Shown in pieces: positions 14,363 to 52,341 of a stretch of DNA of 64,000 bases. The DNA is taken from positions 36,302 through 100,301 of the forward strand of contig JAKURL010000002.1 in the NCBI GenBank assembly GCA_022449345.1, in the 5' to 3' direction. Positions within the stretch are counted from its first letter, which is position 1; each line of letters begins with the position of its first letter. Position numbers and translations under genes: made by a program. The DNA is from Candidatus Thalassarchaeum sp. Lineage in GTDB: Archaea; Thermoplasmatota; Poseidoniia; Poseidoniales; Thalassarchaeaceae. Below the pieces are notes generated by a model, which saw nothing but the letters and a program-made list of their open reading frames with translations, had not been told where the DNA came from and made no database searches.

Positions 14363-17236
14363 ATGGCATACGATTCCGCAGACATTGAGACGCGCTGGCA
14401 GGCTCGCTGGCGAGACGCGCGCGTCTTTGATGCCGAAGTTGATGATTCTCGTCCGAAATTCTACTGTCTCGAGATGTTCCCATATCCATCTGGCTACATG
14501 CACATGGGTCACGTTAGGAATTACTCGATTGGAGACGCCATGGCACGCTTCCAACGCTTGATGGGCAAGAATGTACTCTATCCGATGGGATACGACTCGT
14601 TCGGAATGCCCGCCGAGAACGCTGCAAAGAAGGAAGGCGGGCATCCTCACACTGTAACTGAGCGAAATATCGAGATGATCCGTGCAGATCAGGAGAGAAT
14701 GGGATATTCCTACGACTGGCGACGTGTATTCGCTACTTCGACGCCAGAATATTACCGATGGAATCAGGAGTTATTCTTGCGATTCAACGAGGCTGGCTTG
14801 GTCGAAAGGCGATTTGCTCCAGTCAACTGGTGTGACGATTGTGATACCGTTCTTGCAAATGAACAGGTGAAGAATAATCGCTGCTGGCGATGTGGTCTTG
14901 AGGTAGTTCAGAAGGACATGGCACAGTGGTTCTTACGCATGACAAAGTACGCTGATGAACTATTGGACGAACTCGATCACATAGAATTCCCAGAGAATGT
15001 CAAGGCCATGCAACGCAATTGGATTGGTAGATCACATGGCGCGCATATCGAATTCCCTGTCGTCGGTGATGTTGACGGTCAATCAGCCAGTATAGGGGCG
15101 TTTACCACACGTCCGGACACTATCTTTGGAGTCACTTTCGTAACTCTGTCTCCAGAACATCCTCTCTGCGAACCGCTAGTTGCCGGAACAGAATTCGAGC
15201 AGGCTTGGAGAGACTTGGCAGAAGAGTGCGCTAGAATGTCAGAGTTTGAGAGAGTCAATATGCTGAAGGAGAAAAAGGGAGTTCCTCTCGGGCGATTCGC
15301 TACAAATCCACTAACCGGAGAGGAAGTTCCAATCTTTGCAGGCAATTTCGTTGTCGCCAGCTACGGAACAGGGGCTGTAATGGCGGTCCCAGGACATGAC
15401 CAACGAGATTACGACTTCGCCAAGAAGTACGGACTTGAAATCAAGCCAGTTCTATCCCGAAGCGAGGGTGGTGAAGGGATTGAGGAGAATCCCGTATTCG
15501 ATGGCTTAGGTTGGATGGTTAATTCAACTGCCGAGGGGTTCGACGGGCTCTTCGGTGATGACGCAAAGACCGCGGTAATTTCTGCCTTAGAAGCAAGGGA
15601 AACAGGCCATGGGTCGGTGGAGTATCGACTGAAGGATTGGTTACTCAGTCGCCAGCGCTTCTGGGGCACTCCGATTCCAATGCTCCACTGTGATGCCTGC
15701 GGCGTCGTTCCTGTTCCCTACGAAGAACTGCCCGTTGAGTTGCCGTTGGACGTTACTTTCAGTTGGGAAGAGAGTGGTAATCCGCTCGCGCGCAGTGAAT
15801 CATTCCTTGCAGCAACTTGTCCGCAGTGCAGCGCTCCTGCGCGTCGAGAAACCGATACGATGGATACTTTCTATGATTCATCTTGGTATTTTATGAGATT
15901 CGCTGATTCGTCCAACGAATCAGCTTCTTTCGATCGTCAAGCGGTTGATTATTGGATGAATTGCGGGGTCGATTTGTACATCGGTGGTATCGAACACGCC
16001 GTTATGCATCTGCTATATGCTCGCTTCTTCACCAAAGCAACTCGCGATCTCGGAATGAACGAGGTCGGTGAGCCATTCGGGCGCTTGGTCTGTCAGGGTA
16101 TGCTAAACGCTCCCGCGCCTTTCTGTGTCGTTTGTAACACAGAATATCATGTAGATAATTTCGGAGGAGATTGTCCGAATTGTGGGGGAGGTCTAGGCTC
16201 TCGATCTGCAAAGATGAGCAAGAGTCTCGGAAACACCGTTAGTCCGGGCGAGATGGTAGATCGATTCGGTGCTGATACCGTTCGCCTGTTCATTCTCTTC
16301 GGTGCGAATCCCGAGGCTGGAATGGATTGGTCAGATAATGCAGTAATCGCAAATCACAAACAGGTTTGTTCGATTATCGACGCTTTTGAGCACGGGATGT
16401 CGCTAGAAGATTCCTCCGGCCCAATGGATTCGTGGTTGTTGGCTCGCCTGCGAGTAAACCAGAATCGTTGGCGAGATTGCATGCAAGCAGTCAGCCTTAG
16501 AGAAGGTGTGATGGTGAGCCACTTTGAGATGCTTGCAGATTGGCAGTGGTATCTGCGAAGAGGAGGCTCTGATAGGGCAACTGCACACCAGTTCCTAAGT
16601 GGATGGGCGCCGATGTTAGCACCTGCGACACCGCATATTGCAGAAGAGTTCTGGGCAGCTCTTGGTGAGAGCGAATCAGCAAGTATGCTGGCAATTCAAG
16701 AGATGGAATTTTACTCTGGAGAAGAAGGTGATGCAGAAGCCCTTGCCCGAGAAGCCTACCTGCGTGGAGTCATTGAATCAGCTCGGAATTTGAGAGGCCT
16801 AGCAGAACGCCATTCGGATGCAGAAATTTCCGGAGTCGTCATCCAAACCGCTCCATCTTGGAAAGCAGACTTAGCCCGTGAAGCAGTCAAGTTAGCAACC
16901 GAGGACTTCGATTTCAAGGGCCAAGGTCAAGATTATCTAAAGTCGCTGGTGATTTTCGAAAATGAGTCATTGAGGGGAGAAATTTTCCAGACTTGGATGG
17001 CTCTTACCATGGGCTCAAAGAAGAAGCGAGGCCGAATTCACACTTGGGCTGACGGTGAGAAACAATTGGTCATGAGCGGCCTTGACGAGAGCGAGGTAAT
17101 CAATTCCGCAGCCGACTTCCTCACTGCTGCTTTGGGAGTCGATTCGGTAATCGCTTACCCTGTTGGAGAGGGTGAGGATGTCGCTGGTAAGGCGCGAGTT
17201 GCCTTCCCACTAGAGCCTGGTATCGCTTTTGTTTGA
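14363..17236 (+). CDS. leuS: leucyl-tRNA synthetase, archaeal/eukaryotic type
   Basis: HMGHVRNY (HIGH-type) and KMSKSLGN motifs, a CP1 editing domain, 957 aa. Confidence 0.95.
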   Translation: MAYDSADIETRWQARWRDARVFDAEVDDSRPKFYCLEMFPYPSGYMHMGHVRNYSIGDAMARFQRLMGKNVLYPMGYDSFGMPAENAAKKEGGHPHTVTERNIEMIRADQERMGYSYDWRRVFATSTPEYYRWNQELFLRFNEAGLVERRFAPVNWCDDCDTVLANEQVKNNRCWRCGLEVVQKDMAQWFLRMTKYADELLDELDHIEFPENVKAMQRNWIGRSHGAHIEFPVVGDVDGQSASIGAFTTRPDTIFGVTFVTLSPEHPLCEPLVAGTEFEQAWRDLAEECARMSEFERVNMLKEKKGVPLGRFATNPLTGEEVPIFAGNFVVASYGTGAVMAVPGHDQRDYDFAKKYGLEIKPVLSRSEGGEGIEENPVFDGLGWMVNSTAEGFDGLFGDDAKTAVISALEARETGHGSVEYRLKDWLLSRQRFWGTPIPMLHCDACGVVPVPYEELPVELPLDVTFSWEESGNPLARSESFLAATCPQCSAPARRETDTMDTFYDSSWYFMRFADSSNESASFDRQAVDYWMNCGVDLYIGGIEHAVMHLLYARFFTKATRDLGMNEVGEPFGRLVCQGMLNAPAPFCVVCNTEYHVDNFGGDCPNCGGGLGSRSAKMSKSLGNTVSPGEMVDRFGADTVRLFILFGANPEAGMDWSDNAVIANHKQVCSIIDAFEHGMSLEDSSGPMDSWLLARLRVNQNRWRDCMQAVSLREGVMVSHFEMLADWQWYLRRGGSDRATAHQFLSGWAPMLAPATPHIAEEFWAALGESESASMLAIQEMEFYSGEEGDAEALAREAYLRGVIESARNLRGLAERHSDAEISGVVIQTAPSWKADLAREAVKLATEDFDFKGQGQDYLKSLVIFENESLRGEIFQTWMALTMGSKKKRGRIHTWADGEKQLVMSGLDESEVINSAADFLTAALGVDSVIAYPVGEGEDVAGKARVAFPLEPGIAFV

Positions 17237-17245
17237 GGGCTAGCG

Positions 17246-17602
17246 ATGGACGCGCAATACACCGTTCTCATCGACGGATTCTGTCCTGTTTGCACCGGCT
17301 GGGCGGTCTTTATCAACAAGAGAGATTCATCGGGACGTTTCTCAATCGTTGCTCAGGAAACTCCAGAAGGAGAGCGGATTTTAACTAGCCGTCCGGAAAC
17401 AATGTCGGACCTTGATTCAGTATTCTTCATCGATGAATCGGGTAAATGGTATGCTCAGTCGTCAGCGGTTATTCGGATTCTTCTTGGCCTTGGCTTTCCG
17501 TATAATCTAGGGGCAGTTATTTGGTTGATTCCAAGTCCAGTACGAAACTTCGCTTACGGTCTCTATGCTCGCCATCGTAAGCGAAACCCAAGCGACTCGT
17601 GA
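17246..17602 (+). CDS. DCC-family thiol-disulfide oxidoreductase (DUF393)
   Basis: LIDGFCPVCTGW motif, about 118 aa. Confidence 0.7.
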   Translation: MDAQYTVLIDGFCPVCTGWAVFINKRDSSGRFSIVAQETPEGERILTSRPETMSDLDSVFFIDESGKWYAQSSAVIRILLGLGFPYNLGAVIWLIPSPVRNFAYGLYARHRKRNPSDS

Positions 17603-17662
17603 TAGAGAATTGGACATCTTCAGCGCGAGGGTTCATGGGCGGTCGACCGGTCGCACGCTTCG

Positions 17663-18718
17663 TTGAGCGAGAATAAGGAAGGTAGAGGCCGTCGCAGAAG
17701 GCGACGTCCGCGAAGGAAGCCGGCCAATGCTGCCGAATCTCGGCCATGGTCGCAAGGAGATTCCGAGGCGGTAGATCGAGCCTTAGCGCGCTTTCAACAA
17801 AACCCTCCTCCGATGGGGATGCCGGATTCGCTAGATCCTCCACCGAGGGAAAGGCAACTCCGATGGAGAACAAATTCTGTTCCCAAAGATATCCAAAAGA
17901 AGGTCGCTGACATCGTCTGCAGACCGGGTGAATTTGGCTTCCTTCCTGAAGAAAGGGTTGAGGAAATTAAAAGTCAAATAGACCATCTTCCGATTACTGT
18001 CGAACAAGCACTATCGCTTCGCGGTGCATTGAATCAGGAGAAGAGCGTACATTCTCATGGCCGTCTGATGCGTAATGCAAATCAGTTACGACGGCGCTAT
18101 GACAAGGGCGAAGGAGTTCTGACTCTCTCTCAACGATTTGACGCCCCGCCAGTCAATACATTCAGAGCCATACTTAGCGGACGGGGCTGGTCAAAGAATC
18201 GAATCAAAGAGACACTGAAAAATCCCAAGAGGTTGAACGAGCGAGACCGAGAGGAATTTTCCAAAGCCGAGGAAGCAGACAAAGTCAGTTCAGTCAATCA
18301 GGCCGATACTCATACCGCTGCAGAGGTATTCGAGGACATTTTGTGCGCACACTTTGATTTCCTAGACATACGCTTCCGAAGGCAAGAGGATTTACTCCGT
18401 GAGCAAAAACAATCCGAAGGCCGAGCGGTTTTGACTCCCGACCTTCTGCTATTGGATGATGTTAGAATCAATGGTGTACCATGCGCTTGGATTGATGCCA
18501 AGCATTTCTACGGTGCTGACTTGAGATTCCCACGAAAGAAGACTCAGAAACAGGTTGATCGATACGTCAAGGAATATGGCCAAGGAGCAATCGTATATCG
18601 ACACGGATTCAGCGGCTCATTGGTTCAGAAAGGAGCAATTTTACTCGACGCTAGTCCGCTGGATTTGACTCCGCTTGACGAATTCCACGAAAGTCGAGCC
18701 GGCGGTTCACACTCATGA
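17663..18718 (+). CDS. hypothetical protein with a poly-Arg N-terminus and a C-terminal TPD-motif PD-(D/E)xK nuclease-like domain (CDIN1/C15orf41-like)
   Basis: GRGRRRRRRPRRK at the N-terminus; ...VLTPDLLLLDDVRINGVPCAWIDAKHFYG shows the TPD motif and a D...(D/E)xK pattern. Confidence 0.4.
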   Translation: MSENKEGRGRRRRRRPRRKPANAAESRPWSQGDSEAVDRALARFQQNPPPMGMPDSLDPPPRERQLRWRTNSVPKDIQKKVADIVCRPGEFGFLPEERVEEIKSQIDHLPITVEQALSLRGALNQEKSVHSHGRLMRNANQLRRRYDKGEGVLTLSQRFDAPPVNTFRAILSGRGWSKNRIKETLKNPKRLNERDREEFSKAEEADKVSSVNQADTHTAAEVFEDILCAHFDFLDIRFRRQEDLLREQKQSEGRAVLTPDLLLLDDVRINGVPCAWIDAKHFYGADLRFPRKKTQKQVDRYVKEYGQGAIVYRHGFSGSLVQKGAILLDASPLDLTPLDEFHESRAGGSHS

Positions 18719-19687
18719 GACGGATCCGACGTAAGTCAGGGTAGAATCCAACCCTTCTTCAGCCAGTTCAGTCAATAATGAATCTAGAGTGATTGACCCA
18801 GAAAGCTCCCTTGGTACTATGGCAATACTTTCACCTAACATACAGAGCAAGACAGTGGTATCTGAGCCTAAACCAGTTCTCTGTGCTGCGTTTTGGCCTG
18901 ACTTTACCAAGGCGGAGCGGGATGCATCTTCGCTGAGTCCAGAATGTTTTGCAAAGGCCTCTGCTGAATCTAGAAGTTCTTTCCATCGAGAATTATCCCA
19001 AACACCCTCTGAAAGATGGTTCATCTGATTTATTCCAGCTTCTGTTATCGACTGTTTCCAATCTACATCATCGATATACTCAGATGTATGTCGTCCAGGA
19101 CTAGCACGCCAAGCTAAGACCACAGGTATCGACTTACTCCAACCTTCGGCTTTGCCAGGTCCATTTAGCAAATCTGCTCCCGAATAGGGAGCACCCGGAA
19201 TCAGTCTGCGCTCAACTCCACCAGCAGCTAATGCGGTAACGTCACCGAGGCCGGTTGAATTGTGTCTCTCTACCAAGTGAGCGATAGCGAAGGATCGACG
19301 CATACTCTCCTCGTGTGGTAACCCTAGCGCTCTTTGGAAGGCGACTGCGGCAGCGACTGCACCAGCCGCCGACATTCCGAATCCTTGCGAGGATGGTAAT
19401 TGGTTTCGAATGGCAATTTCCCAACTATGCTCTGTAATTGCAGGAATATCTTCTCTCAGCAGGTCCAAGACCTGCTGGAACATACTTGAATCACCATTTC
19501 CATCTAGGAATTTGACTTTTAGAGAATATTCTCCGGATTCGGCTCGTGCGATTGCCTCAGCCCCATCCGCGAGGCATAATCCAGCTCCGAGGCTGCCTTG
19601 CTTCATCGGGTCATCTTCGAGGTCATCTACTGTGAACAATAGGGTGACGTGCCCACCGCAGGTCCCGCGACCCAACACCGCAGTCAT
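18713..19687 (-). CDS. GHMP-kinase family protein (pantoate-kinase-like)
   Basis: PSSQGFGMSAAGAVAAAVA matches the GHMP ATP-binding motif PxGSGLGSSAA; about 320 aa. Confidence 0.65.
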   Translation of the reverse strand: MTAVLGRGTCGGHVTLLFTVDDLEDDPMKQGSLGAGLCLADGAEAIARAESGEYSLKVKFLDGNGDSSMFQQVLDLLREDIPAITEHSWEIAIRNQLPSSQGFGMSAAGAVAAAVAFQRALGLPHEESMRRSFAIAHLVERHNSTGLGDVTALAAGGVERRLIPGAPYSGADLLNGPGKAEGWSKSIPVVLAWRASPGRHTSEYIDDVDWKQSITEAGINQMNHLSEGVWDNSRWKELLDSAEAFAKHSGLSEDASRSALVKSGQNAAQRTGLGSDTTVLLCMLGESIAIVPRELSGSITLDSLLTELAEEGLDSTLTYVGSVS

Positions 19688-19729
19688 ATGACCTCATCTC
19701 CTAGGCACTGCAAGAATGCTGCGCCGGCA

Positions 19730-20719
19730 TCAGAGAACAGCTTTCAGGTCCACGCCTAGAGATCCGAAGATCTCTGCGAGAGAAGCCGAAGCCATTTCCA
19801 GCGCAGTCTGAGGACTCATCGAACCATCGGTTTCGAAACTGAAGATGAATTCTCCAGGTACGTCCTCAATGGTGATTGCTTCCTTGAAATCGACCTTATT
19901 CTCGGTTCCATCGCCAACGTGGTATAGTTCCCTTGCGAGTGTCTCAACCTTCTCCTGATCCTCAAGGCGTCCGTTCTTGTCGAAGTCCTTTGCATTGATT
20001 TTGAGATTCAAATCCCAGAGAATCTTTGCCTTGGTCTTGTTATTCAAGATTCCAACTTGTCGAGGAACGAAAGCGGTACCACAAACCGGCGACCATTTTG
20101 CGTGCTGGCTACCGCGACCCATAACTGCGGTCGCGTAGAACTCCAACATCTGTCCCTTGTACAACTTGGTAATTGGAATATCTCGGTAATGCTCTGGAAT
20201 CTCTAGACTCTGGTCACCTAGGTAAATCATATCACCAGCAGTTACGGTGATTCCCTCTTCTGTACCGAATGCTTTGCAGGTGTAAATCATGTTACAGGCA
20301 GGACATCCACGATCTTCTGGAACCAACTCCTTGCAATTCGGACAGGTTTCCTCATAGTGGAACTGCTTGTGATCGGTTGGGATTGGAATCATCGCAAGTC
20401 GTTGAGCGACCATCTCATCGGGTAGTGAACCGTTCGTTTCCCATACCGTGAAATCAACGCCTTCCTTCTCCAACTTCTTCTCACACTGGTTACACCCTGA
20501 ACCGCCAGCGGATTCACGGGCTGCAGCAGCAGGATTCAGGTGTCCGCAGGACAAACATAGATCGAAAGAGCCCATTTGGAATCTAACGGTCTCGATTGCC
20601 ATCTTCGGAGTTTCCGACATTAGAGTTCGACGCAGTGCATTTGCAAATGCGCGGTCGCAATCTTTGAGCAGGAGTTTGATATTCTCCATTCCTTCTTCGA
20701 GAACTTGTATCTTTACCAT
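19730..20719 (-). CDS. rpoD: DNA-directed RNA polymerase subunit D (Rpo3) with a Cys-rich insertion
   Basis: N-terminal MVKIQVLEE...DCDRAFANALRR; sits in the S13-S4-S11-RpoD block; two Cys clusters (CLSCGH...CNQC and CPNC...CPAC); start at the internal Met to avoid overlapping rps11. Confidence 0.85.
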   Translation of the reverse strand: MVKIQVLEEGMENIKLLLKDCDRAFANALRRTLMSETPKMAIETVRFQMGSFDLCLSCGHLNPAAAARESAGGSGCNQCEKKLEKEGVDFTVWETNGSLPDEMVAQRLAMIPIPTDHKQFHYEETCPNCKELVPEDRGCPACNMIYTCKAFGTEEGITVTAGDMIYLGDQSLEIPEHYRDIPITKLYKGQMLEFYATAVMGRGSQHAKWSPVCGTAFVPRQVGILNNKTKAKILWDLNLKINAKDFDKNGRLEDQEKVETLARELYHVGDGTENKVDFKEAITIEDVPGEFIFSFETDGSMSPQTALEMASASLAEIFGSLGVDLKAVL

Positions 20720-20729
20720 TACAATCACC

Positions 20730-21113
20730 TCAGACCCTACGGCCTCTTCGGCCGCCCTTTTTCTTAGTCCCATTAGTTGGGATTGGAGTTACGTCTTCGA
20801 TACGGGTGATTTGGACACCAGCACGAGTAAGTGCACGTATAGCCGCAGTAGCGCCAGGTGCACTGTGTGATCGGTTTCCACCTGCTCCTCGATACTTGAC
20901 GACAACTTGGTCGAATTCTTTCTCTGCTAGCATTTCAGCGATTCGTTCAGCAGCTCTGGTTGCGGCGAATTGGCCACCAGCATCGCTGCCCTTCTTGGTT
21001 ACCATTCCACCGGAGACCTTGGCCAAAGTCTCAGCTCCGGTAAGGTCAGTGGCGGTAATCAACACGTTGTTGTAGGTGCTGAAGATGTGTAAAACAGCCT
21101 TGTGCCCCATCAC
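20730..21113 (-). CDS. rps11: 30S ribosomal protein S11 (uS11)
   Basis: ...[25 protein letters not shown]-terminus; about 127 aa. Confidence 0.9.
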
Positions 21114-21802
21114 TCATCGCCTCCTTCTGGAATTGTTTCCTCGACTGTAGGTGCTTCTTCAGCGTCAGCCTTGATTTGTTGCACGAACTCATCGTTGTCT
21201 GTGGTAGCTCTAACTCCGCCAATTTCCTCGAGTTCTTCTTCCTCGGTCTGTCGAGTCATCCGTAGTGTCTCCATCTCGACACGGAAGGGGTGGTTTTCAT
21301 CTTGGTACGGTGAAGTCGCGCTGTACTGGAGAATTTCCTCCTCTTGGCGGCGAATCTTGTAGCCGGGAACTGTCATTCTCTGGTCACCGATTGAGATGTG
21401 TCCGTGGACAATCATGTTTCGAGCAGCGCGCATAGATGGCGCTAGACCACGGTAGTAGACAACTGATTGCAGTCTGCGAGCAAGCATGTGCTCGACAGAA
21501 ATCTGTAGAACATCGTCAACACTGGATCCCTTTGCTAGGAGACCCTTGCGGACAAGTGCGTCGACCAAATTGGCTTTCTCTTGAGCGTAGTGTCCTTCTG
21601 AGGACTCTACTCTACCGATGATTTTCATCGCTTGGTTTCTGTGTCGGCGTAGTGCGGACTTCTCTCGCCAGATCTCACGCATTCCACCGACCTTCTTCAG
21701 GCCGAATTGGTCCTTGAGAGCGTGCTCTTCCTCGATACGAGCAGCCTTCCAAGGGTGAGTGGGAGTCTGTGTCTTAGGTCTTGCAAACTTAGGATGCCCC
21801 AT
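21110..21802 (-). CDS. rps4: 30S ribosomal protein S4 (uS4)
   Basis: Archaeal S4 N-terminus [10 protein letters not shown]... and an S4 RNA-binding domain; 4-nt overlap with rps11. Confidence 0.9.
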
Positions 21803-21813
21803 GCTTCATCACC

Positions 21814-22281
21814 TCACTTCTTCCTCTGCACACCGAGTGTGCTACCACTGCGCCCATTGCTGCGTAGGCGCTGTCCGCGCACTTTGTGGCCGCTTCGGTG
21901 GCGCATTCCGCGGTAGGTCTTGATTGCAGCCAAGCGTGCTACATCGTCGTTGCGGGTCAATCTGACCTCAGTTCCGATGATGTGCGCATCTTCGTTAGAC
22001 TGCAAATCGCGTTGTCTGTTGACGAGCCACCAAGGCACGTTCAACGCATATTCATCAATAGTTGTTCGAATCTTGTCTTGCTCCTCGTCGGTCAGATGAC
22101 CACCGAGTTTGTTGCTGTCGATTCCTGCCATGCGGCAAATCTGGCCGGCCGCGCGTTTTCCAACCCCGTTGATGGAAGTCAGACCCTGTGCTATCGGACG
22201 GAGACCATCGATATCAGAGTCAGCAAGTCTCAGGATGTAGGAGAAATCCTCTCCTAGTTCTGCTTCATTCACTTTTGCCAT
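21814..22281 (-). CDS. rps13: 30S ribosomal protein S13 (uS13)
   Basis: IRLADSDIDGLRPIAQGLTSINGVGKRAA...TYRGMRHRSGHKVRGQR. Confidence 0.9.
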   Translation of the reverse strand: MAKVNEAELGEDFSYILRLADSDIDGLRPIAQGLTSINGVGKRAAGQICRMAGIDSNKLGGHLTDEEQDKIRTTIDEYALNVPWWLVNRQRDLQSNEDAHIIGTEVRLTRNDDVARLAAIKTYRGMRHRSGHKVRGQRLRSNGRSGSTLGVQRKK

Positions 22282-36029: not shown

Positions 36030-39000
36030 ATGTCTATACCTCCTCAACTGCCGAGCAAGCGCAGGTATGCCTTGCTTCTTGCTGCATTGATGATTTTGTT
36101 GCCTTGGTCGGCATATTCTAGTGTAAATGAGTTAGATTCTGAGTTAGAAACTCGCGAGGTTTCGCAGGCGGCATGGGGTGCTTCCGGAAGCAACGACACC
36201 GGATGGATAGATTTGATCGCGACCGGAGCAGACCCTGTTAACGGAAGTTATGCGTACAGTGACCTATTCCTACCGTTTGCTCCGGGCGCTGAAATTTCCA
36301 ATTTAACCTTCGAGATAGCCGTCAACGGCTCGGCTGGTTATTGGGCTAACGAGCCACAACTGACTCTAATGGATACACAAACTCCAATCCTTGATTGGAG
36401 AGGTTATGGTGACCTTGGTCGGCAGGATGAGATGGAGAATAATCCGCCGACCGTACTCAATGGTACACTTAGCACTCATTTGAGACCCAACTCAATCTCA
36501 GATGCTTCTTGGGAACTGCCGGCCGGAGTGACACTCACAGATATGGTAATCGAGGCATTAAGGCCTGCCGATCCAAAGATATCCTACTCAGCAGTAGACA
36601 TAGAGATTCACGACACAGCGGTAAATCCAGTAGATGGCCGATTGTATCTATTGCTAGACGATGATCTTCTTCATCTAGACGCAAGGGCTCACAAGCAAAT
36701 TGTCGATATCGAAACAGGAATCATGGGAAGATCTCTAGCAATCGACGATGATTCTGGAATACTATTGATTGGAACAGAAGATGGCTCAGTGCTTTCACGC
36801 AGTTTGTCGAATTCTGCAATTCTGCCAGACCTGCGTACTAGTGATGGTTCTCAAAACGCCGGAATCTATGCCATAACAGTAGATGATCATGGAACAATTT
36901 GGGCGGCAGGAAATTGTACCATTTACTACAAGCCGATGGGGAATGTCGACTGGAGTGATTACGATTATTGCCAGTCGTTTAACATAGAGACTCCATCTGA
37001 CATTCTCATTATTGGCGATAGTGTCTACCTTGCAACCACTAGTTCTGGAGTACACATCATCAACTACATCACCGCTTCTTCTTCAGGCAGTGTTTCAGTC
37101 TCAATAGACTCTCAAATAGATTGGAGTACTCAGAATTTCCTTTCCTCAAACCTGATTACAGACCTCGAGATAGTTGGTAATAATCTTCTAATCGCGACCT
37201 ATGACACTGGAATCAATCGTAGAGACCTTACCTCACAATCTTGGATAGCCACTTGGTCAACAAATAACTGGTTGGCATCCAATCAGATTCACGGCTTGTC
37301 GCTTACCCCCGGCTGGCTTCATATCCTTGCTGGTACGACCATTCACGCCTATGATACCAATTCACTAATCTTCCAATCACAAAATCAACTTACTTCCCTC
37401 GGTTTGTATGGAAATGGTGCTATGGCCATTCCATGGCCTTCACATTCGGTTAGAGGCCCAATCACCTCCACAGCTCTGTTTAGCGATGGTTCTGGCACTT
37501 TGGGAATGCAGATTGGTGAGAACCCAGCAGGCGCTCTTACTCTTGTCAGTAGCCCATCTGTCGAAGGCATGGCGGTAGTCTCACGCATCAATGATGGTGC
37601 GTCGGGTGAGATTTGGGTTGCTGGGGGTAAAATAATCGATCGATTTGACGAATCAGATCGGGCTTGGGAGATTCCAATCGACATTAGTGACTACGTCAAC
37701 AATCCAGGTCAGATCGTTGCGATTGAACAGGATGGCAACGAGAAGGTTTGGATTGGAACGACTAATGCCGGAGTTCTGAGGCTAGAAAATACCGATGGAA
37801 CCTACATCGGAACTGTTTCAGGACTAAGTTCAACTCATGTTACTTCCTTATCTTACGACGATATCAACGGTTACTTGGTAGTAGGGCATAGCCAATCTGG
37901 AATTTCCATAATCGATACCAACCAGATGACATTAGTAGATACGATAACCACTTCCGATGGTTTAGATTCTGACTTCATAAATTCAGTTACAACTCGTTTT
38001 GGAATCGCCTACATCGCTACTCCGGATAAGGGAGTAATGCGTATCGAATTATCGACTTCGACAATCATCGGCTCGTGGCAATCACTCGGTGCCGATAATT
38101 TGGATGCAACACCGGTTGCAGTCGATGGTGACGTTGTTTACATCGGACTCTATGAGTTCGGTATTCTAGTCGTCGATAGACTAACTGGAGATATCTCAGA
38201 CCATTGGACACAGGATACCAACACTCTACCTGACGACGACGTTCTATCATTGGAAATGGACGATTTCGGTGGTCTATTAGTCGGCTCAGAGGGCTCCTTC
38301 TCCCGTTACGATGGCAGTACTTGGACCACTATGACAAGCAGTGGCCAATGGTGGAATCAACCTAGTGTATTCTACGATGTCACCAGCGACGGAGATGGGC
38401 TGTACGCTGGAACTAACAGAGGTGCTTGCAAGTGGGATTGGCAGTATCAATTCCAAGATTGTGTAAGCTCTGGTGATGGCCTCGAGAGTCGTTTCGTGTA
38501 TACCATAGAGATGCTAGCACCAAACCGTGCTTACACGGGTGGAAACTCCGGAGCTGGTATCGTCAATATGGATAATTTCTCAGTAATTGAGACTTGGACC
38601 GCCGGCGACAACACACAGCGCTCGCGTACGGTCAAGGTTGACGATATTCTCTACCTTGGATTCGAGAACACCGGCATAGCCCGATATGATTTGACAAATA
38701 ATCAGTGGTTGACTACTTGGGACGGAGATCAAGGATACATCAACGACGATGATGTAACCGCCTTAGTTCCAGGGGAAACATACGGAACAATTTGGGCAGG
38801 CGGAGATTTTGGTCTGACATTAATCGATGTCGTGAATGACGTAGTATTGATTGCTTGGGATAGAGGTTCGAATACCAACGGCCCTACACTTTCTAATTCA
38901 ATTCCTGCAGATATAGAAATCTACGGAGATGTATTGCATTACTCCACACAACGCTCAACCGGTTGGTGGGGCGGTGGCTCTGACAGCATCTATCGCATCA

Positions 39001-42000
39001 ATCTGACAACAAATTCTAGCATGACCACGCTTGAGGTTAACGATCAAACAGGTTGGACTGGAGTGGTGAACGGAATTGGAGTTGTAAACGACCAATTGTG
39101 GATTGGCATTAGACCTTCTCAGACTTGGAACGATGGAGATGGAACAATTGCTCGCTGGAATATGACCAACGAATCTTGGGAGGAAGATCTGGCAACAATC
39201 GGAAATGTTCTACGCGTTAATGCTCGATTCCTAGGTGATTGTTTCCCATTGAACACAAGTTCTTGTGAACTTTGGGTGGCGTATGGGAATTACATTCTAA
39301 GACGATTCAATGCAGATACAATGATGCTTCTAGATGAGTGGGTCGACGTTGACGGTCCAATTCGAGGAATGACCGAATTCGAAGGAGAATACCTATTCGC
39401 TAGCATGAATGGTATTCTTCGATGGAATCCAGTAAACGAAACTTGGCTAGATTCTTGGACTCCTGGAGACGGCTTACCATCGAGTTCTGAGGAAGAGTTC
39501 TACTCGATGGCGGTTATCGAAAACGATCTTTGGTTGGGTACAATGGAGTCCAGTGGCTGGAACTCAAACGCTCAGGTACTGAGAAAGAACGGAACAGACG
39601 GGAATTGGACATCTTGGGATTTAGGAACAGGAGACATCCCTGACGGATATCCAGCCGACATCAAGTTGTGTGATGATATTGTCCACATTGCTATCGGCGC
39701 TCGATTTTTCTGGGGCAATCAAGGTGGTGTTGCCCGTTATGACTTCGCAGACCATGATTCAGATTCCTTGACCAATGAATGGATTAGTGCGATGACTTCT
39801 GGTAGCTCGGGTTTATCCAATAATGATCCAAGGGCCGTGGCTTGCGATGAGAGCAACGACATTTTGTACATTGCATACGATACTGAGGGTGTAGGCATCG
39901 ATCGCTATAACTACAATACGGACACATACCTTTCCACCCTTACTTCAGTCGATGGAATCAGCGAGGACAGAATATTCCCTGGTGGATTGTTACATGACAA
40001 CAACGTCCTCTTGGCCGCTCACCAATTCGATAACCATGGAGGAATTTCTCGTTTGATTACTTCCGGAACAGCAACCGCAAATGGCCAAATCCTAGACCCC
40101 GGAATGGACGGCTGTTCTATCGAAAGAGCTCCTTCGTCTACAGGTCAAGTAGCCTACGCTGTGGGGCGCTCAGGTCAGACAACAGGACTGAACAGAGTCG
40201 ATAGGCTAGACAGTTCAGGATTAATCGCAAGTGGCTATGATGAACTCACTGGACTAACCAGTGGCCGCGTGATGGAAATAATCTCCAATGACACACATGT
40301 ATGGGTTACCTCATCCTTGGACTCTAACTCCTACTACGGGTCCTCGATTCTTCAGGGAGAAATTCTCTCGAATGGCTCTGTTAGATGGGAATTTGGTTAC
40401 AATTTCCGAGAGGATATAGTCAATGAAATGATGTTGGATGGTGAGACTCTATGGGTCACCACGGCAGGCCGAGGCCTGAAGGCAATTGACTTGAAACAGC
40501 GCCGTGTAACCTCCACTCCGCCGGCACTACACGCACAGATGGATGGAATGGTGTTGGAGAACGGTACGATGTATGTTGGACTAATGGGTAATCAAGGTTC
40601 AGCGGCCGGATTCCAGATGTTCAATACCCAAAATGCTCAGTGGGGTCATGGCAGTCTAATCGCCGGATTACCGAGCAACCTTGTGCGAGATTTCATCATT
40701 TACGGTGACCACATCATGATCGCTACCCATGGTGGAATTGGAATGTACAATACCACCCGTGACGATTGGGATAATCCGATAACCACAATCGATGGATTAC
40801 CTTCACCGATAATCACCCATTTACACGCCCTCAACACAACCATCCAGGGCGGTGGAAAGGTTCTGGCTGGCGGTGCAGCAGGTATGACGGTCCTGCATCA
40901 ACACAACCTTTCGGTCCTCAACACATTAGGATTCAATGATGGACTGATGGGTAATACCGTGAGTGGAATAGTAGAGGCAGGACCGAGTTCCCGCGTCGTT
41001 CAAAACGCCGATGGAACGAACACCACTCTTTACCACGACGCGTCGATATTCATCTCACACAATGGACAAGGGCCAACTCGACCCGGTGTAGCGGCCTGGG
41101 ATTTGGCCACCGATATGGCAAATGGTACTTACAATATCGACATGGTTCCAAGTAATGACATTAGGGCGATTGTTGCTGATGACTGGGGAGTTCACATCGC
41201 TACCGACGTCGCTCCTTTGGTACATTGGAACGGTAGCATGATGCAGATGGAAACTGGAGTTAGTACCAGTTCCTTACTTTCTTGGCCTCCATACGAGATG
41301 CACAGTGACGGCCAGCACATCGTGGTGATGAGTCCTCGTGGTCTCGACGTTGTAGATGTAGACGGAAGACACAATGTGGTGACTAGCCGAGTGATTACTG
41401 GTCTGCAAGGTGGATATGTCGACTTCAGCGGTTTCTATGCTGTTGGGAATGACGGTCTTCATGTCTACAAACCAGTAATTAGTCTGCAAGAGAATTCACG
41501 TGAGCATCAACGCCGTGCAGATCCGCTAACAGTATTGTATAGTGGCCGAAATTGGGATATTACCAATACAACTCATCCAGGAATGTCAACGGTTTTGGTA
41601 ACTCCTGATAATCCGATTGAGATTCCTGAGACCTCTAATGTTGCTGCCCCTGGTAAACTTCCGATGCACGTCGGAACAATGACGATGATGGCACCTCAAC
41701 GAGGTGCCTGGGTGTGGGCTCAGTCTACGTCGTTGAATTATACTGGAAGTTGGGATTTGGCTACCTCTAATGGAGGAATTCAACAGGCCTTCCAGTCAGC
41801 CATTTCTGCAGTAGGGCCTGGTACCTCTTCTGCAATTCTTCATGTCCAAATGCAGTCACCTCAGGATGGAGCCATTCAGGTTAGGTTGACTTATGATTGG
41901 GAGCGAATCGAGGCTCCAACTGTCATTACCAAACTTGAGGATAGACCCAATGATGGTGGAGGCGTAATCGAAGCCTCTTGGCTACCTGCAGAGGATGCTG

Positions 42001-44618
42001 CTTGGCATGCCTATAGATTGTATGTATGGGATTCGTCGGTTGACCCACTATGGGAACCAACTCAGGAAGACCTAGATTCATTCTCTACCTACATGAGATC
42101 CAACTTCTGGTCTCGCACAAATGCCACCATTACCCGAGCGGATAATGATGGACTAACCGAGCAATTGCGAGATGACCGTCAATACCGAGCAGCGGTGGTT
42201 ATCGAATATGCAGATGGCTCACTAGGTGTACCGATGGCATATCCTCACAATGTAACTCCGACTGATGAGATTCCAGCAGCCCCTGCTTGGATGACAGCTA
42301 ATCCAGTATCGGGAGGAGCAGCGGGTACCATCTTCCTAGAATGGGCCGCCTGTACAGAACTAGATCCGGATAGAGTAAGAATTTGGGCGGTCCAGCAGGA
42401 GATTACCAGTGCAGTAGGACTTTCTGACCCATTCGAATTCCATTGGAGTACCGGAAATACAACCGCCCTGCAGCTAGAAGGCGGAGTTGCTTACTGGTTT
42501 GCTGCAGTTTGTGTTGATGAGGCTGGACAGTCATCAATCGAGAACGCCACAATAATCGGACCTGTTGTTACTGCGGGTGGTTTGGATGATGGAATTCCAC
42601 CTGTTCCTATCACTGGAACAACAGCCATCGACGTTCCTAACGACGAAGGTGGTAGAATCAACGTCACTTGGGATGCAAATACCGAGGAGGACTGTACCTA
42701 CTACACGGTCTACACCTTGCCAGCCTCTGGCTGGCAACCCCCTTCAACGGTCGATGGTTGGCCAGTTGCAGGATATACAGACAGTTGTGAAACGACTTCG
42801 ATTATCATCGACTCTATAGGAGAAAGTAGTCTAATCGATGGAACGGTCTACTGGATAGGAGTAGTCGCTTACGATGATTGGGGCAATGGGGATGTCGACA
42901 ATGTATTGGTTGTCGACGCCACTCCTGAGGCAGATTTCGATGGTGAAGCGATACCACCAGACCGCGTAACTGGCCTCGAAGCTTGGGATTACCCAGATGA
43001 TGATGGAACGGCCATAGATATCCGTTGGAATCGCTCAGCCGCCGATGATTTCTCATTCTATACAGTCTGGGTATCCGAATACCCGTTGAATAATGTAACC
43101 GAGATATGGGAATTGTGTAGTGAAAATCCATCCTCGTGTGGTCTCGTTATCATTAACCAGCGTCAGTTTGGGGCAAATTTCCAGTTAGAATACACCGCGG
43201 AGAGAGCCCTTTACGGTAGTTCGGCAGATACCTTAGAGGCGACTCCAATCCACTCGATGATTCCGCTCTACGTGACAATCACCATTCACGATATCAGTGG
43301 AAATGTGCACCTAAGCGATCTTTCGGAACATATGGTCTTGGTCACTCCAATGGATAACCGTGGAGATATTTCTCCGCCAGACCGCCTAGAAGCGCCGGTA
43401 CTGAGAGATAGGCCCAACGATGCCGGAAATGCGATGTTCGTAGAATTCCAACAAAGTGATGCTTCTGACATTGCGGAATATTGGATTTACGCGGTAATTG
43501 ACACTCCAGTTCTATTGGAGAGAACCGATGACTTACACCCCGCGATGGTTATCGACAGGGAACAAGGTCTACCAGTTCTGCTAACCGAGTTCTCTGCTCA
43601 TGGAGATGACGAGGCGACACCACTGGTGCCAAACCGCCGAATTTACGTGGCGGTAGTCGCCGTTGATTCATCTGGCAATGCTTGGATGGACAACCTCGCT
43701 AGCACATGGATCGAGTTGTCCGACGAACTCTCCGCAGATCCATGTCCAGAGTGCCCAGATGTTAGTGGGCTACGGGCTAGTTGGAATGCTGCGGGTTCAC
43801 TGATTGAGGTAAATTGGGATAATGTCGAAGACCCGAAGTATGCAAGCTACTACGCCTTTGTCAGCCTTGACACATTCGATGATACACGTAACGCAACTTT
43901 GGTCAAGTCTGGAATGAGAGACACTATTTTGATTCTCAACGAATTCAACGGCGAGATGATTGACCGTGAAGAGAGATATTGGATTGAGATTGTAACTTGG
44001 AACGGCCAAGTCCACACATATCACGCCGACCCGATTGAGGTTTCACCTTGGGAGGAATCTTCCTTTGGTACAACCCAACCAGGAGATGATTCAGCAGGAG
44101 AGTCTTGGGTTGAGAGAATACTTGCAGGGGAGATGAACATGGTAATCCTCGCGCTATCGGTAGTAATGCTGCTAATCGGCGCACTGATGTTCATCAGACC
44201 AAGAGGAGAAGCGGCTCCAGAACCTTGGGAGATGGGCGCGCTCGAGGTCGAATTGGAAGAACAACTAGAGCGCGAGGCGGCAGGTCTCAGCGACGACGAA
44301 GAATTCGGCGTTGATGATTTGGAGATTGATGGTGGCTTGGTAGCCAATGCTCGGCGCAAAGACGGAGATGCTCCTGATTCAAGCGAGAGCGATTATACAG
44401 AGACAGCGGCGAGTGCTGGAGTACCTGTAGAAGAAGACCTCGGCCCAACACCATCTGCTGAAAGCGAGGTCATCGACGAATTACTCGGTGCCGAGGAAGA
44501 AGAATTAGATCTCGGCGATCTAGATGATATGGCCGATGACCTAAACTTGGATGAAAAGCCTGATGATGATTCCGAAGACGAGGATATTGACACCTCCTTC
44601 CTCGACGAGATGCTCTGA
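36030..44618 (+). CDS. giant secreted surface protein (2862 aa): signal peptide, many beta-propeller (Reg_prop/YVTN-like) repeats, FN3-like modules, a C-terminal TM anchor and an acidic cytoplasmic tail
   Basis: N-terminal signal; a repeating G..vW.GT..G.. pattern; C-terminal MVILALSVVMLLIGALMFI followed by a D/E-rich tail. Confidence 0.85.
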   Translation: MSIPPQLPSKRRYALLLAALMILLPWSAYSSVNELDSELETREVSQAAWGASGSNDTGWIDLIATGADPVNGSYAYSDLFLPFAPGAEISNLTFEIAVNGSAGYWANEPQLTLMDTQTPILDWRGYGDLGRQDEMENNPPTVLNGTLSTHLRPNSISDASWELPAGVTLTDMVIEALRPADPKISYSAVDIEIHDTAVNPVDGRLYLLLDDDLLHLDARAHKQIVDIETGIMGRSLAIDDDSGILLIGTEDGSVLSRSLSNSAILPDLRTSDGSQNAGIYAITVDDHGTIWAAGNCTIYYKPMGNVDWSDYDYCQSFNIETPSDILIIGDSVYLATTSSGVHIINYITASSSGSVSVSIDSQIDWSTQNFLSSNLITDLEIVGNNLLIATYDTGINRRDLTSQSWIATWSTNNWLASNQIHGLSLTPGWLHILAGTTIHAYDTNSLIFQSQNQLTSLGLYGNGAMAIPWPSHSVRGPITSTALFSDGSGTLGMQIGENPAGALTLVSSPSVEGMAVVSRINDGASGEIWVAGGKIIDRFDESDRAWEIPIDISDYVNNPGQIVAIEQDGNEKVWIGTTNAGVLRLENTDGTYIGTVSGLSSTHVTSLSYDDINGYLVVGHSQSGISIIDTNQMTLVDTITTSDGLDSDFINSVTTRFGIAYIATPDKGVMRIELSTSTIIGSWQSLGADNLDATPVAVDGDVVYIGLYEFGILVVDRLTGDISDHWTQDTNTLPDDDVLSLEMDDFGGLLVGSEGSFSRYDGSTWTTMTSSGQWWNQPSVFYDVTSDGDGLYAGTNRGACKWDWQYQFQDCVSSGDGLESRFVYTIEMLAPNRAYTGGNSGAGIVNMDNFSVIETWTAGDNTQRSRTVKVDDILYLGFENTGIARYDLTNNQWLTTWDGDQGYINDDDVTALVPGETYGTIWAGGDFGLTLIDVVNDVVLIAWDRGSNTNGPTLSNSIPADIEIYGDVLHYSTQRSTGWWGGGSDSIYRINLTTNSSMTTLEVNDQTGWTGVVNGIGVVNDQLWIGIRPSQTWNDGDGTIARWNMTNESWEEDLATIGNVLRVNARFLGDCFPLNTSSCELWVAYGNYILRRFNADTMMLLDEWVDVDGPIRGMTEFEGEYLFASMNGILRWNPVNETWLDSWTPGDGLPSSSEEEFYSMAVIENDLWLGTMESSGWNSNAQVLRKNGTDGNWTSWDLGTGDIPDGYPADIKLCDDIVHIAIGARFFWGNQGGVARYDFADHDSDSLTNEWISAMTSGSSGLSNNDPRAVACDESNDILYIAYDTEGVGIDRYNYNTDTYLSTLTSVDGISEDRIFPGGLLHDNNVLLAAHQFDNHGGISRLITSGTATANGQILDPGMDGCSIERAPSSTGQVAYAVGRSGQTTGLNRVDRLDSSGLIASGYDELTGLTSGRVMEIISNDTHVWVTSSLDSNSYYGSSILQGEILSNGSVRWEFGYNFREDIVNEMMLDGETLWVTTAGRGLKAIDLKQRRVTSTPPALHAQMDGMVLENGTMYVGLMGNQGSAAGFQMFNTQNAQWGHGSLIAGLPSNLVRDFIIYGDHIMIATHGGIGMYNTTRDDWDNPITTIDGLPSPIITHLHALNTTIQGGGKVLAGGAAGMTVLHQHNLSVLNTLGFNDGLMGNTVSGIVEAGPSSRVVQNADGTNTTLYHDASIFISHNGQGPTRPGVAAWDLATDMANGTYNIDMVPSNDIRAIVADDWGVHIATDVAPLVHWNGSMMQMETGVSTSSLLSWPPYEMHSDGQHIVVMSPRGLDVVDVDGRHNVVTSRVITGLQGGYVDFSGFYAVGNDGLHVYKPVISLQENSREHQRRADPLTVLYSGRNWDITNTTHPGMSTVLVTPDNPIEIPETSNVAAPGKLPMHVGTMTMMAPQRGAWVWAQSTSLNYTGSWDLATSNGGIQQAFQSAISAVGPGTSSAILHVQMQSPQDGAIQVRLTYDWERIEAPTVITKLEDRPNDGGGVIEASWLPAEDAAWHAYRLYVWDSSVDPLWEPTQEDLDSFSTYMRSNFWSRTNATITRADNDGLTEQLRDDRQYRAAVVIEYADGSLGVPMAYPHNVTPTDEIPAAPAWMTANPVSGGAAGTIFLEWAACTELDPDRVRIWAVQQEITSAVGLSDPFEFHWSTGNTTALQLEGGVAYWFAAVCVDEAGQSSIENATIIGPVVTAGGLDDGIPPVPITGTTAIDVPNDEGGRINVTWDANTEEDCTYYTVYTLPASGWQPPSTVDGWPVAGYTDSCETTSIIIDSIGESSLIDGTVYWIGVVAYDDWGNGDVDNVLVVDATPEADFDGEAIPPDRVTGLEAWDYPDDDGTAIDIRWNRSAADDFSFYTVWVSEYPLNNVTEIWELCSENPSSCGLVIINQRQFGANFQLEYTAERALYGSSADTLEATPIHSMIPLYVTITIHDISGNVHLSDLSEHMVLVTPMDNRGDISPPDRLEAPVLRDRPNDAGNAMFVEFQQSDASDIAEYWIYAVIDTPVLLERTDDLHPAMVIDREQGLPVLLTEFSAHGDDEATPLVPNRRIYVAVVAVDSSGNAWMDNLASTWIELSDELSADPCPECPDVSGLRASWNAAGSLIEVNWDNVEDPKYASYYAFVSLDTFDDTRNATLVKSGMRDTILILNEFNGEMIDREERYWIEIVTWNGQVHTYHADPIEVSPWEESSFGTTQPGDDSAGESWVERILAGEMNMVILALSVVMLLIGALMFIRPRGEAAPEPWEMGALEVELEEQLEREAAGLSDDEEFGVDDLEIDGGLVANARRKDGDAPDSSESDYTETAASAGVPVEEDLGPTPSAESEVIDELLGAEEEELDLGDLDDMADDLNLDEKPDDDSEDEDIDTSFLDEML

Positions 44619-47692: not shown

Positions 47693-48091
47693 TTGAAGGA
47701 GCGGTATTCGCTGGCTGGGTTGACGTCTATGCCAGTCTGTCGAATGTGCACCCAAAACTACCCGAACTCTCAGTTCGTAAGTGGTAATGGCCCACGCTAC
47801 CAAGTTTGCGTTCGCTGCGCTACCGAGAATGATATGCTGGCTGAGGGAGAGGAGACAGCACTCTACTCAGACGAACTAGTTCGAGCTCGCTCGGCACTAT
47901 TCGCTCGACGCTACAGACCGTGGGCTTTTCTTGGAGCAGGATGGTTACTCTTCTTCACCTATGGATCTGGAATCGAATTGTGGTCGAACATACTGCTAGG
48001 CACTCTAGTTCTCGGAACACTGGCAACTCCAGTGCTTCACTTCATGACATCGACGAAATTCAAGGCAGAACTCGCCGGACTAACTCCCTGA
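47693..48091 (+). CDS. small membrane protein with an N-terminal zinc ribbon
   Basis: CRMC...CVRC followed by two TM helices. Confidence 0.45.
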   Translation: MKERYSLAGLTSMPVCRMCTQNYPNSQFVSGNGPRYQVCVRCATENDMLAEGEETALYSDELVRARSALFARRYRPWAFLGAGWLLFFTYGSGIELWSNILLGTLVLGTLATPVLHFMTSTKFKAELAGLTP

Positions 48092-48141
48092 GGGTAAATT
48101 ATCCAGTTTCCTACCCAATCAGCCTCGGGAACTCTTGAAAT

Positions 48142-48156
48142 AGCCCCGTAGGGGCT
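48142..48156 (+). terminator. 6-bp GC hairpin (agcccc-gta-ggggct) 3' of the 47693-48091 gene; same 13-nt core as at 22368-22382
   Basis: Perfect stem; about 50 nt after the stop codon. Confidence 0.3.
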
Positions 48157-48431
48157 GAGAATTCAGAGGGAACGGTGGGTTCCCTATGAAAGCCCGTGAG
48201 ATTGGATGCGTAAAAGAGGAGGAGCAAACGAAGTAATACAGCAGTTCCACAATAACCGTGAATGGAGCGCAGTGCAGCGTTTAGAACGGTCGTGGAAGGC
48301 ATACCCAGTGGGCTCCCAAATAGCATCCATCACTCCCGGACGAATCGGCTTCGCGCAAGGACGAGCGCGAGCATTCGCTGGAAAGAGAGAACAGCGGGTT
48401 CTCTGAACTGATTTTTGGAAGTGAAAAGAAA

Positions 48432-49850: not shown

Positions 49851-49958
49851 TACAGTAGCGCTGGTCGATTATTGCTCAGGCCCGCGGTCCGTTGATTCGC
49901 GGTGACAGGTTCCCTAGGGGTGATTCAGTCCCTAGGCGAACCGCCCCTTTTTCCATCC

Positions 49959-50972
49959 TCAGAAATCGAAGAGGGTTGGTTGATTTTCGGACTTCAGATG
50001 ATTTGCTGATGCTAGTCTGTCTAGGGCTCTCTGCAATCTACCATCAGAGAATCCATATTCACCTTGTAGGAATTCACGTAAGTCCTTCTCAACGGCACGC
50101 TGCGCTTGGGGAATAGGATCTGGATGAACAGGATGATTGAGAAATAACCCTCGTATAGTTTCGATATCCTCTGGCATTTCGAATTCCTTCACTTCAGCAA
50201 CCGCTTCCATTGTACCATGTTCTTTGATTAGTTTCAGACCAGTTTTTGGACCAATTCCCTTGATTCCAGGGTGGAAGTCGGTTCCAATCATTATCGCAAG
50301 GTCAACCAGTTGCTCTTTAGTAATCTCGTGAGTGTCGAGCATTTCCTTCAATACAACCTTCTCAGCGGTTAGTACACGGCCGAATTTCTTGCGTCCGTGA
50401 CTGGTTAGATTCCGAATCATTACAGGAGATCCATACAGAAGAGTGTCCCAATCTTGGCTAGCAACAGCGGCTACCTCTCCATTCGCACAACGAACCGCTC
50501 CTGCGCCTTCAGCTTCCATCGGTGCCTCAATCCAGACTAGGCCTAGGCAATCGAATAGCCGCTTGGTCTCGGCGACCATGGCACGAGTGTATTCAGCGGT
50601 CTGTGGGCCGAGTTTCTTTGCGAGAGCCATGTCTCCCGCCTCAACGGCAGCTTCCCACTTTTCTACAGCCTCGACTTTACGCTCCTTTCTTCCGGCAAGT
50701 GTTTCCAACTTCAGGTCATGTGGACGACCATCAAAGATGAATACCGGCTCGATTCCATTCTCTAGCATCCAGGTCGCTCGATCAAGAAATCCCATCAGAT
50801 GAGCAACAGGCTTTCCATTGAAGGAAAGCGGCTTACCATCTTGGCCGACAAGGCTAGTGATGAATTGGTAGGCATTCAGGAATACGTCGACGGCAATTTT
50901 CTGACCCGCCATCTCATTCAATTCTAGAGGGTGTGCGGTTGCTAAATCTCTCAAATTACAGCCCAGATTCAC
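49959..50972 (-). CDS. fen: flap endonuclease 1
   Basis: XPG-N and XPG-I domains; N-terminus ...LAGKKIAIDALNAIYQF-like (here MAGQKIAVDVFLNAYQF). Confidence 0.9.
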   Translation of the reverse strand: MNLGCNLRDLATAHPLELNEMAGQKIAVDVFLNAYQFITSLVGQDGKPLSFNGKPVAHLMGFLDRATWMLENGIEPVFIFDGRPHDLKLETLAGRKERKVEAVEKWEAAVEAGDMALAKKLGPQTAEYTRAMVAETKRLFDCLGLVWIEAPMEAEGAGAVRCANGEVAAVASQDWDTLLYGSPVMIRNLTSHGRKKFGRVLTAEKVVLKEMLDTHEITKEQLVDLAIMIGTDFHPGIKGIGPKTGLKLIKEHGTMEAVAEVKEFEMPEDIETIRGLFLNHPVHPDPIPQAQRAVEKDLREFLQGEYGFSDGRLQRALDRLASANHLKSENQPTLFDF

Positions 50973-52313: not shown

Positions 52314-52317
52314 CTAA
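52302..52317. repeat. attL-like copy of a 16-bp direct repeat (tatcgcccaccactaa) overlapping the 3' end of tRNA-Arg
   Basis: Exact 16/16 match to 54016-54031. Confidence 0.8.
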
Positions 52318-52341
52318 TCATTTCCAAGTCAGAATGAACAT

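Follow-up and report, generated by a model that had tools for sequence, protein, structure and literature searches.

An archaeal ortholog of the nuclease CDIN1 with an arginine-rich N-terminal tail in Marine Group II Poseidoniales

We describe a protein-coding gene in a 64,000-nucleotide stretch of the genome of Candidatus Thalassarchaeum sp. (assembly GCA_022449345.1, contig JAKURL010000002.1, positions 36,302 to 100,301; "the window", in whose own numbering all coordinates are given). The coding sequence at 17663–18718, on the forward strand as are all features of the gene described here, specifies a CDIN1/TPD-family protein of 351 residues (predicted 40.2 kDa, pI 9.6), starting with TTG and ending with a TGA stop at 18716–18718. 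This open reading frame (ORF) is the Poseidoniales (Marine Group II, MGII; MGIIb/Thalassarchaeaceae) ortholog of eukaryotic CDIN1 (C15orf41), the Codanin-1-interacting RNA nuclease of humans (PMC13463051). We show here that the protein belongs to this family and has its fold, that the active site is intact and invariant, that an N-terminal tail is conserved and that the conserved synteny is of housekeeping type; as an explanation of the whole, we consider it somewhat probable that this CDIN1 ortholog is a two-domain nuclease for the processing of RNA or RNA:DNA hybrids, with its arginine-rich tail acting as a tether. An earlier interpretation made from the letters alone (the sequence-only reading) had described the ORF with an Arg-rich N-terminus and a C-terminal motif region, and these are present exactly as described.

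The protein has a single Pfam match, to PF14811 (TPD), with a score of 69.8 bits (cut-off 27; E = 2.7e-19) over residues 193–323 (nt 18239–18631); as a reference, human CDIN1 scores 190.6 bits against the same profile. The sequence-only reading had assigned the ORF to the CDIN1/C15orf41 family and proposed PF14811 as the profile with which to check this, and the match bears it out; its further label 'Hjc-like' is not supported, in that the protein shows neither membership in the Hjc profile nor a close structural match to Hjc. The NCBIfam scan gave no informative match for the protein. A large protein database contains 905 homologs, the named ones being 'TPD domain-containing protein' from Thalassarchaeaceae or Euryarchaeota metagenome-assembled genomes (MAGs), and HMMER, run exhaustively over 1.84 billion cluster representatives, returns 1143 clusters at 50% identity. 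The homology typically spans query residues ~64–335, so it covers both domains of the protein, that is, more than the Pfam domain alone. The family assignment and the existence of archaeal orthologs are already on record; in the literature, we found no paper on the archaeal CDIN1/TPD proteins themselves.

We modeled the protein with AlphaFold2 using a diverse family alignment; the model is confident (predicted local distance difference test score, pLDDT, 92.4; predicted template modeling score, pTM, 0.86) and has the two-domain architecture described for CDIN1 (PMC13463051), that is, a helical N-domain, a long helix and an α/β/α C-domain. The all-helical N-domain (residues 87–205, 17921–18277), formed by helices within 96–205, is the equivalent of the CDIN1 N-domain. 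The PD-(D/E)xK α/β/α nuclease domain (residues 206–346, 18278–18700), delimited by Pfam, the model and structural matches, opens with the long connecting helix 213–233 and continues as a mixed β-sheet with flanking helices, in which D260 lies at strand 261–269 and D278 and K280 at strand 272–280. The best solved-structure matches of the C-domain are PD-(D/E)xK nucleases, in agreement with the nuclease-like domain proposed from the sequence alone. The Foldseek search against the PDB gave no significant match, and sequence searches of the PDB found none for either the query or human CDIN1, and no family member has a solved structure; a PDB search with the family profile returned one marginal match (E = 0.047), to T7 endonuclease I, in which the E...TPD segment is aligned. 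Ahead of the N-domain, residues 31–86 (17753–17920) form an extension that is absent from human CDIN1 and contains invariant residues (pLDDT 86–97): in the model, helix 34–45 (AVDRALARF), a Pro-rich segment 46–62 (PPPMGMPDSLDPPP), strand 63–66 and helix 75–85 are packed on the body of the protein. From about residue 64 on, this extension is common to the protist and giant-virus homologs.

All comparisons with the human protein use what we take to be the CDIN1 sequence of UniProt Q9Y2V0. In that sequence K53, Y94, R101, R126, D155, E166, L178, D196, E214, K216, D231 and Q232 all match the numbering of PMC13463051, and its 190.6 bits against PF14811 provide a second check. BLASTP aligns the query with human CDIN1 at E = 2e-7 (23% identity over 172 residues), pairing TPD with TPD and WIDAK with WIESK; in the family alignment, human CDIN1 aligns to query residues ~87–340. 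The human catalytic residues E166, D196, E214 and K216 correspond to E224, D260, D278 and K280. E224 (18332–18334), on the long helix, is the predicted metal-binding Glu; T258-P259-D260 (18434–18442) is the TPD motif, with D260 equivalent to the human catalytic D196; and D278-A279-K280 (18494–18502) is the (D/E)xK motif, equivalent to human E214-S215-K216. The two motifs lie within residues 256–284, VLTPDLLLLDDVRINGVPCAWIDAKHFYG. Across 30 diverse homologs with identities down to 27%, there is no variation at E224, T258, P259, D260, W276, K280, G284, Y301, G306 and G308, only D or E occurs at position 278, and Q297 is nearly invariant. The protein therefore carries the TPD motif and the E...D...(D/E)xK arrangement of the CDIN1 family (E224, T258-P259-D260, D278, K280). 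The sequence-only reading had recognized this motif and a catalytic triad, and had named poor conservation of the putative catalytic residues as what would count against it; instead, they are invariant in the 30 homologs and align with those of human CDIN1.

We are nearly certain of family membership and nuclease competence. The alternative is a catalytically silent protein that binds nucleic acids or serves as a scaffold and keeps the nuclease fold only; it could appeal to the early studies that failed to detect nuclease activity of human C15orf41 and to the large nucleic-acid-binding additions (the tail and the helical domain). However, archaea, viruses and humans share the four catalytic positions (with D or E at 278) and the TPD motif without variation, which is unexpected for a degenerate site and makes a dead scaffold unlikely; together with the D196/E214-dependent activity of human CDIN1 (PMC13463051), this leaves the alternative highly improbable.

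The substrate is suggested by the human enzyme, which cleaves RNA and left every tested DNA substrate uncut (Brolih et al. 2026, PMC13463051); its activity is lost in D196A/E214A, and it binds double-stranded DNA (dsDNA) (PMC13463051). The human RNA contacts T194, Q232 and Y236 have counterparts in T258, Q297 and Y301, as does K216, also a contact in the human model, in K280; the DNA-strand contacts R101 and H56 correspond to R168 and H132, and human Q49 to Q125 in the N-domain. We propose that the archaeal protein would combine a helical, nucleic-acid-binding N-domain with a Mg2+-dependent PD-(D/E)xK nuclease domain (active site E224/D260/D278/K280) and would act as a metal-dependent nuclease on RNA or RNA:DNA hybrids. 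Alternatively, it may be a nuclease of DNA repair or recombination, that is, a structure-specific DNase or Holliday-junction resolvase like Hjc or T7 endonuclease I, the tail and helical domain of which would bind branched DNA: the fold is PD-(D/E)xK, the characterized members of which mostly cut DNA, the marginal profile match is to T7 endonuclease I, similarity to Hjc was predicted in older literature, and human CDIN1 binds dsDNA. Against this stand the cleavage by human CDIN1 of RNA and of none of the tested DNA substrates, the conservation of the human RNA-contacting residues in the archaeal protein and the absence of adjacent recombination or repair genes, and we regard a DNA repair nuclease as unlikely. 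For an RNA-directed activity with a tethering tail we see an even chance.

The tail (residues 1–30, 17663–17752) is predicted to be disordered (pLDDT 51–63) and is strongly basic, with 10 R, 2 K and 3 E and a pI of 12. Its poly-Arg core, GRGRRRRRRPRRK, occupies residues 7–19 (nt 17681–17719). The nine Arg of the core are encoded by five different codons (AGA, CGT, CGC, AGG and CGA), so the run is not a nucleotide repeat, and a DNA-level repeat as its origin is ruled out. When every open segment of 60 aa or more is considered in the six frames of the window, at least eight Arg within 13 residues occur only in this ORF and in one 66-aa out-of-frame segment that lies within a larger gene. Conservation of the tail is seen at the protein level: in orthologs 65–89% identical and in about 80 species-level MGII genomes, the first ~38 residues contain 9–17 Arg+Lys. 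We also considered a Tat signal peptide, which is ruled out by the polar PANAAESRPWSQGDSE that follows the poly-Arg in place of a hydrophobic stretch. By analogy with arginine-rich RNA-binding motifs, non-specific tethering to a polyanionic substrate would be the most economical role for the tail; a disordered polyanion tether of this kind would increase the affinity for the substrate in cis. For human CDIN1, Codanin-1 has a positively charged coiled-coil domain that serves as a 'feeder', increasing both substrate affinity and processivity (PMC13463051), and the archaeal tail might do in cis the job that this domain does in trans.

That the tail belongs to the protein follows from the gene model. 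The TTG at 17663–17665 is the first possible start past the upstream stop, and it is followed in frame only by M51 and M53 as the next candidates. Both fall within a segment that is conserved in the orthologs (A40, R43, F44, P48, P50 and G52 are invariant) and confidently modeled (pLDDT 86–97); an internal ATG start is therefore ruled out, TTG is the only usable start, and the Arg-rich N-terminus is part of the protein. For the same reason, the 301-aa database versions (P0004–P0006) are truncated gene calls; the public gene calls disagree on the start, with extensions of 356–375 aa or more as well as the 301-aa truncations. In essentially all MGIIb loci the conserved protein starts with LS(E/D), the Leu codon being TTG; the start is GTG in one MGIIb locus and in a distant clade. 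There is no Shine-Dalgarno-like sequence at the TTG, whereas many genes in the window have GAGGTGA-like motifs 4–8 nt before their ATG.

The genome neighborhood (14363–22281) contains genes for an archaeal-type leucyl-tRNA synthetase (LeuRS), a DCC1-like thiol oxidoreductase, a GHMP-family kinase (probably pantoate kinase), RNA polymerase subunit D (RpoD) and then S11, S4 and S13; the kinase gene is convergent with the TPD gene, with a 6-bp overlap. A scan of species-representative genomes gave 176 matching loci, 80 of which were inspected; the search peptides are MGIIb-specific, so the scan is uninformative on other archaeal lineages. All but one of the inspected loci (79/80) are labeled Poseidoniales, Thalassarchaeaceae, MGII or generic Euryarchaeota, Methanobacteriota or Thermoplasmatota MAGs, and the closest, with 85–91% identity, include MGIIb-O1 labels. 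The order LeuRS-(DCC1)-TPD, convergent with kinase-RpoD-S11-S4-S13, recurs in relatives about 70% identical; in a 49%-identical clade the part LeuRS-(small gene)-TPD with the convergent kinase recurs, even with a LeuRS that is only 41% identical. The DCC1-like gene is missing in some relatives (e.g., L003), and in L085, where only the LeuRS-TPD-kinase part recurs, an unrelated 180-aa ORF takes its place. One record, PBEM01000001.1, is titled 'Chloroflexota bacterium isolate SP321' and has an MGII-type TPD locus, the start region of which does not differ from that of the locus L028; mis-binning of the contig is the probable explanation.

Conserved gene order and a base composition typical of the window (gene GC 0.50, third-codon-position GC 0.455; window GC 0.49) make the TPD gene look like a vertically inherited, housekeeping-type gene and not an island gene. 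They also bear on the suggestion that the protein is a defense or restriction-type nuclease or the cargo of a mobile element. The restriction-endonuclease-like fold, the homologs in giant viruses and a RING-fused copy (59% identical) that lies among ORFans on its contig are compatible with it; it is opposed by the lack of any PADLOC match at E up to 1 and of any PHROG match, by the lack of a methyltransferase or other defense partner nearby, by the native base composition, by a genomic position that is constant in the inspected loci and persists in the 49%-identical clade, and by the neighbors, which are LeuRS, pantoate kinase, RpoD and ribosomal-protein genes, and we give it very little credence. 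The 'repair or defence role' offered by the sequence-only reading finds no support: there are no PADLOC or PHROG matches, the neighborhood is conserved and of housekeeping type at every Poseidoniales locus examined, and the biochemistry of human CDIN1, the only such work on this family, gave cleavage of RNA and none of DNA. The functional guess should shift from repair or defense towards the processing of RNA or RNA:DNA hybrids.

The closest labeled representatives outside MGIIb are all eukaryotic (Kipferlia bialata, 48% identity; MMETSP transcripts; Chaetoceros neogracilis; Bigelowiella natans). Numerous AT-rich representatives, some 270–290 aa long, resemble giant-virus proteins, which fits the structural matches to the mimivirus 'CDAN1-interacting nuclease 1' and a megavirus TPD protein. 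Basic patches like the archaeal tail are found in 16 of 50 homologs with long N-terminal extensions. In a crude neighbor-joining (NJ) tree, the MGII clades are interleaved with protist sequences; the cluster names of the 30 representatives are mostly absent and the taxon labels of the tree are sparse, so the tree is only indicative. One further relative, P0121 (L086, 2140–3828), has 562 aa, is 59% identical to the query over residues 55–344, and contains a partial internal duplication; where the query has the Arg tail, its N-terminus is Cys-rich and RING-like. It is encoded on a 42-kb contig, the other genes of which have no Pfam or PHROG matches except for one RING-finger protein; the PHROG scan of the ten neighbors of this RING-CDIN1 fusion gave no matches. 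The contig may be a virus or mobile element.

Several points weigh against an RNA-processing nuclease with a tethering tail. We know of no activity data for any archaeal, protist or viral member of the family, and most PD-(D/E)xK enzymes are DNases. The identity to human CDIN1 is only about 21–23%, so the substrate preference may differ from that of the human enzyme; human K53 and Y94 are not conserved, their equivalents being V129 and A161. Linkage to LeuRS and RpoD is weak functional evidence. Finally, the function of the tail is only predicted, and the tail could be an inherited relic of an exchanged eukaryotic-type gene, because the protist patches would more naturally be nuclear-localization signals (NLSs) and the NJ tree interleaves the MGII clades with protists.

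Upstream of the gene lies an invariant element, GGGTTCATG(G), at 17629–17637, which occurs once in the window; its ATG (17635–17637) is 28 nt before the TTG. As a start of the gene in this window this ATG is ruled out, since it is one base out of frame; it opens an upstream open reading frame (uORF) of 13 codons in the +1 frame, MGGRPVARFVERE, at 17635–17676 (TAA at 17674–17676), that overlaps the TTG start. The distance from the ATG of the element to the TTG is 27 nt in 61 loci, 28 nt in 19 loci and this window, and 26 nt in one locus, and the spacer is not conserved in sequence. We tallied the reading frame of the upstream ATG in 81 sequences (80 loci and this window): it is in frame and open in 45 loci, adding nine residues, whereas 16 loci have a stop between an in-frame ATG and the TTG. 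In the other 20 sequences the ATG is out of frame, with a shift of +1 in this window and in 19 loci, though one of the 20 has the other frame instead, and it opens a uORF that usually has 11–13 codons. In the 49%-identical clade, TATTCATGG lies 27 nt before the GTG start. Rfam has nothing in the upstream region, and scanning it for sigma-70 promoters and terminators yielded nothing informative for an archaeon. The element could be a ribosome-loading site composed of a Shine-Dalgarno sequence and ATG, or a uORF that feeds the weak start; alternatively, it could act as a promoter element, its distance from the TTG being the one that a leaderless transcript would require. The conserved TTG start without a Shine-Dalgarno sequence, preceded by the conserved element with its ATG, probably serves to limit expression or to regulate it.

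These features can be joined into a wider reading that we put forward as doubtful: the MGII protein would be a self-sufficient, Codanin-independent CDIN1 in which the Arg tail, possibly with residues 31–86, replaces the Codanin-1 feeder in cis; the gene may have passed between an ancestor of the Poseidoniales and either marine protists or giant viruses, in which case the tail is possibly a repurposed NLS-like segment; and GGGTTCATG, 27±1 nt upstream of the TTG whatever the frame, is possibly an undescribed archaeal device for the initiation of translation or transcription.

Elsewhere in the window, tRNA-Arg(TCG) at 52237–52313 is directly followed by the stretch of lowest GC (0.39 vs 0.49 overall), which holds two minus-strand ORFs (52342–53382 and 53383–53931); the region 52237–54000 may be a tRNA-adjacent integrated element. 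The window also contains a 2862-aa ORF at 36030–44618; near it, at 48001–50000, both GC (0.553) and AT skew (0.265) are unusually high in a segment overlapping with a 472-aa ORF.

CDIN1 is essential in human cells and is mutated in CDA-I (congenital dyserythropoietic anemia type I), and its enzymatic activity was demonstrated only in 2026. A small, confidently modeled archaeal ortholog, presumably independent of Codanin-1, could suit structural and biochemical work and could show the ancestral substrate of the family; if it is indeed self-sufficient, it would be a tractable prokaryotic model for an anemia-associated RNA nuclease. A gene common almost exclusively to eukaryotes, giant viruses and a single, abundant marine archaeal group also bears on gene exchange in the plankton. 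Current understanding is unchanged: the family is known and already annotated, and what is added is a lineage-specific basic tail.

Among known systems, Hjc and other PD-(D/E)xK nucleases (AF1548, Cas4 SSO0001, Can2, Vsr, NucS and type II restriction enzymes) share the fold of the catalytic core and the metal-binding motif; however, they are without the CDIN1 N-domain and have no sequence-profile relation to the protein beyond the marginal T7 endonuclease I match. The giant-virus TPD proteins match the full length of the structure (best E = 8.8e-26, template modeling score 0.82), those of Acanthamoeba polyphaga mimivirus ('CDAN1-interacting nuclease 1') and Powai lake megavirus with E = 1.9e-12 and 2.1e-08; they differ in having about 210–300 aa and no basic tail. 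The marine protist homologs are the closest non-archaeal relatives (38–48% identity over about 260–290 residues, with the segment 64–86 included), and many have basic N-terminal patches; in contrast to the short archaeal poly-Arg tail, their N-terminal extensions are usually long and contain Cys-rich modules (CxxC...QWK) together with NLS-like patches rich in Lys. The obligate partnership with Codanin-1 is a metazoan feature, that is, it defines the metazoan complex and not the Pfam family. Codanin-1 is a eukaryotic protein that stabilizes and 'feeds' human CDIN1, and the literature (PMC7092493) has no report of it in archaea, MGII genomes not having been searched for a Codanin-like protein. 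Relative to human CDIN1, the archaeal protein has about 86 extra N-terminal residues, the poly-Arg tail included; it belongs to the same Pfam family and has the same succession of a helical N-domain, a long helix with the first Glu and an α/β/α PD-(D/E)xK domain, and the spacing of its catalytic E/D/(D/E)/K residues is nearly the same, 36/18/2 compared with 30/18/2 in the human enzyme.
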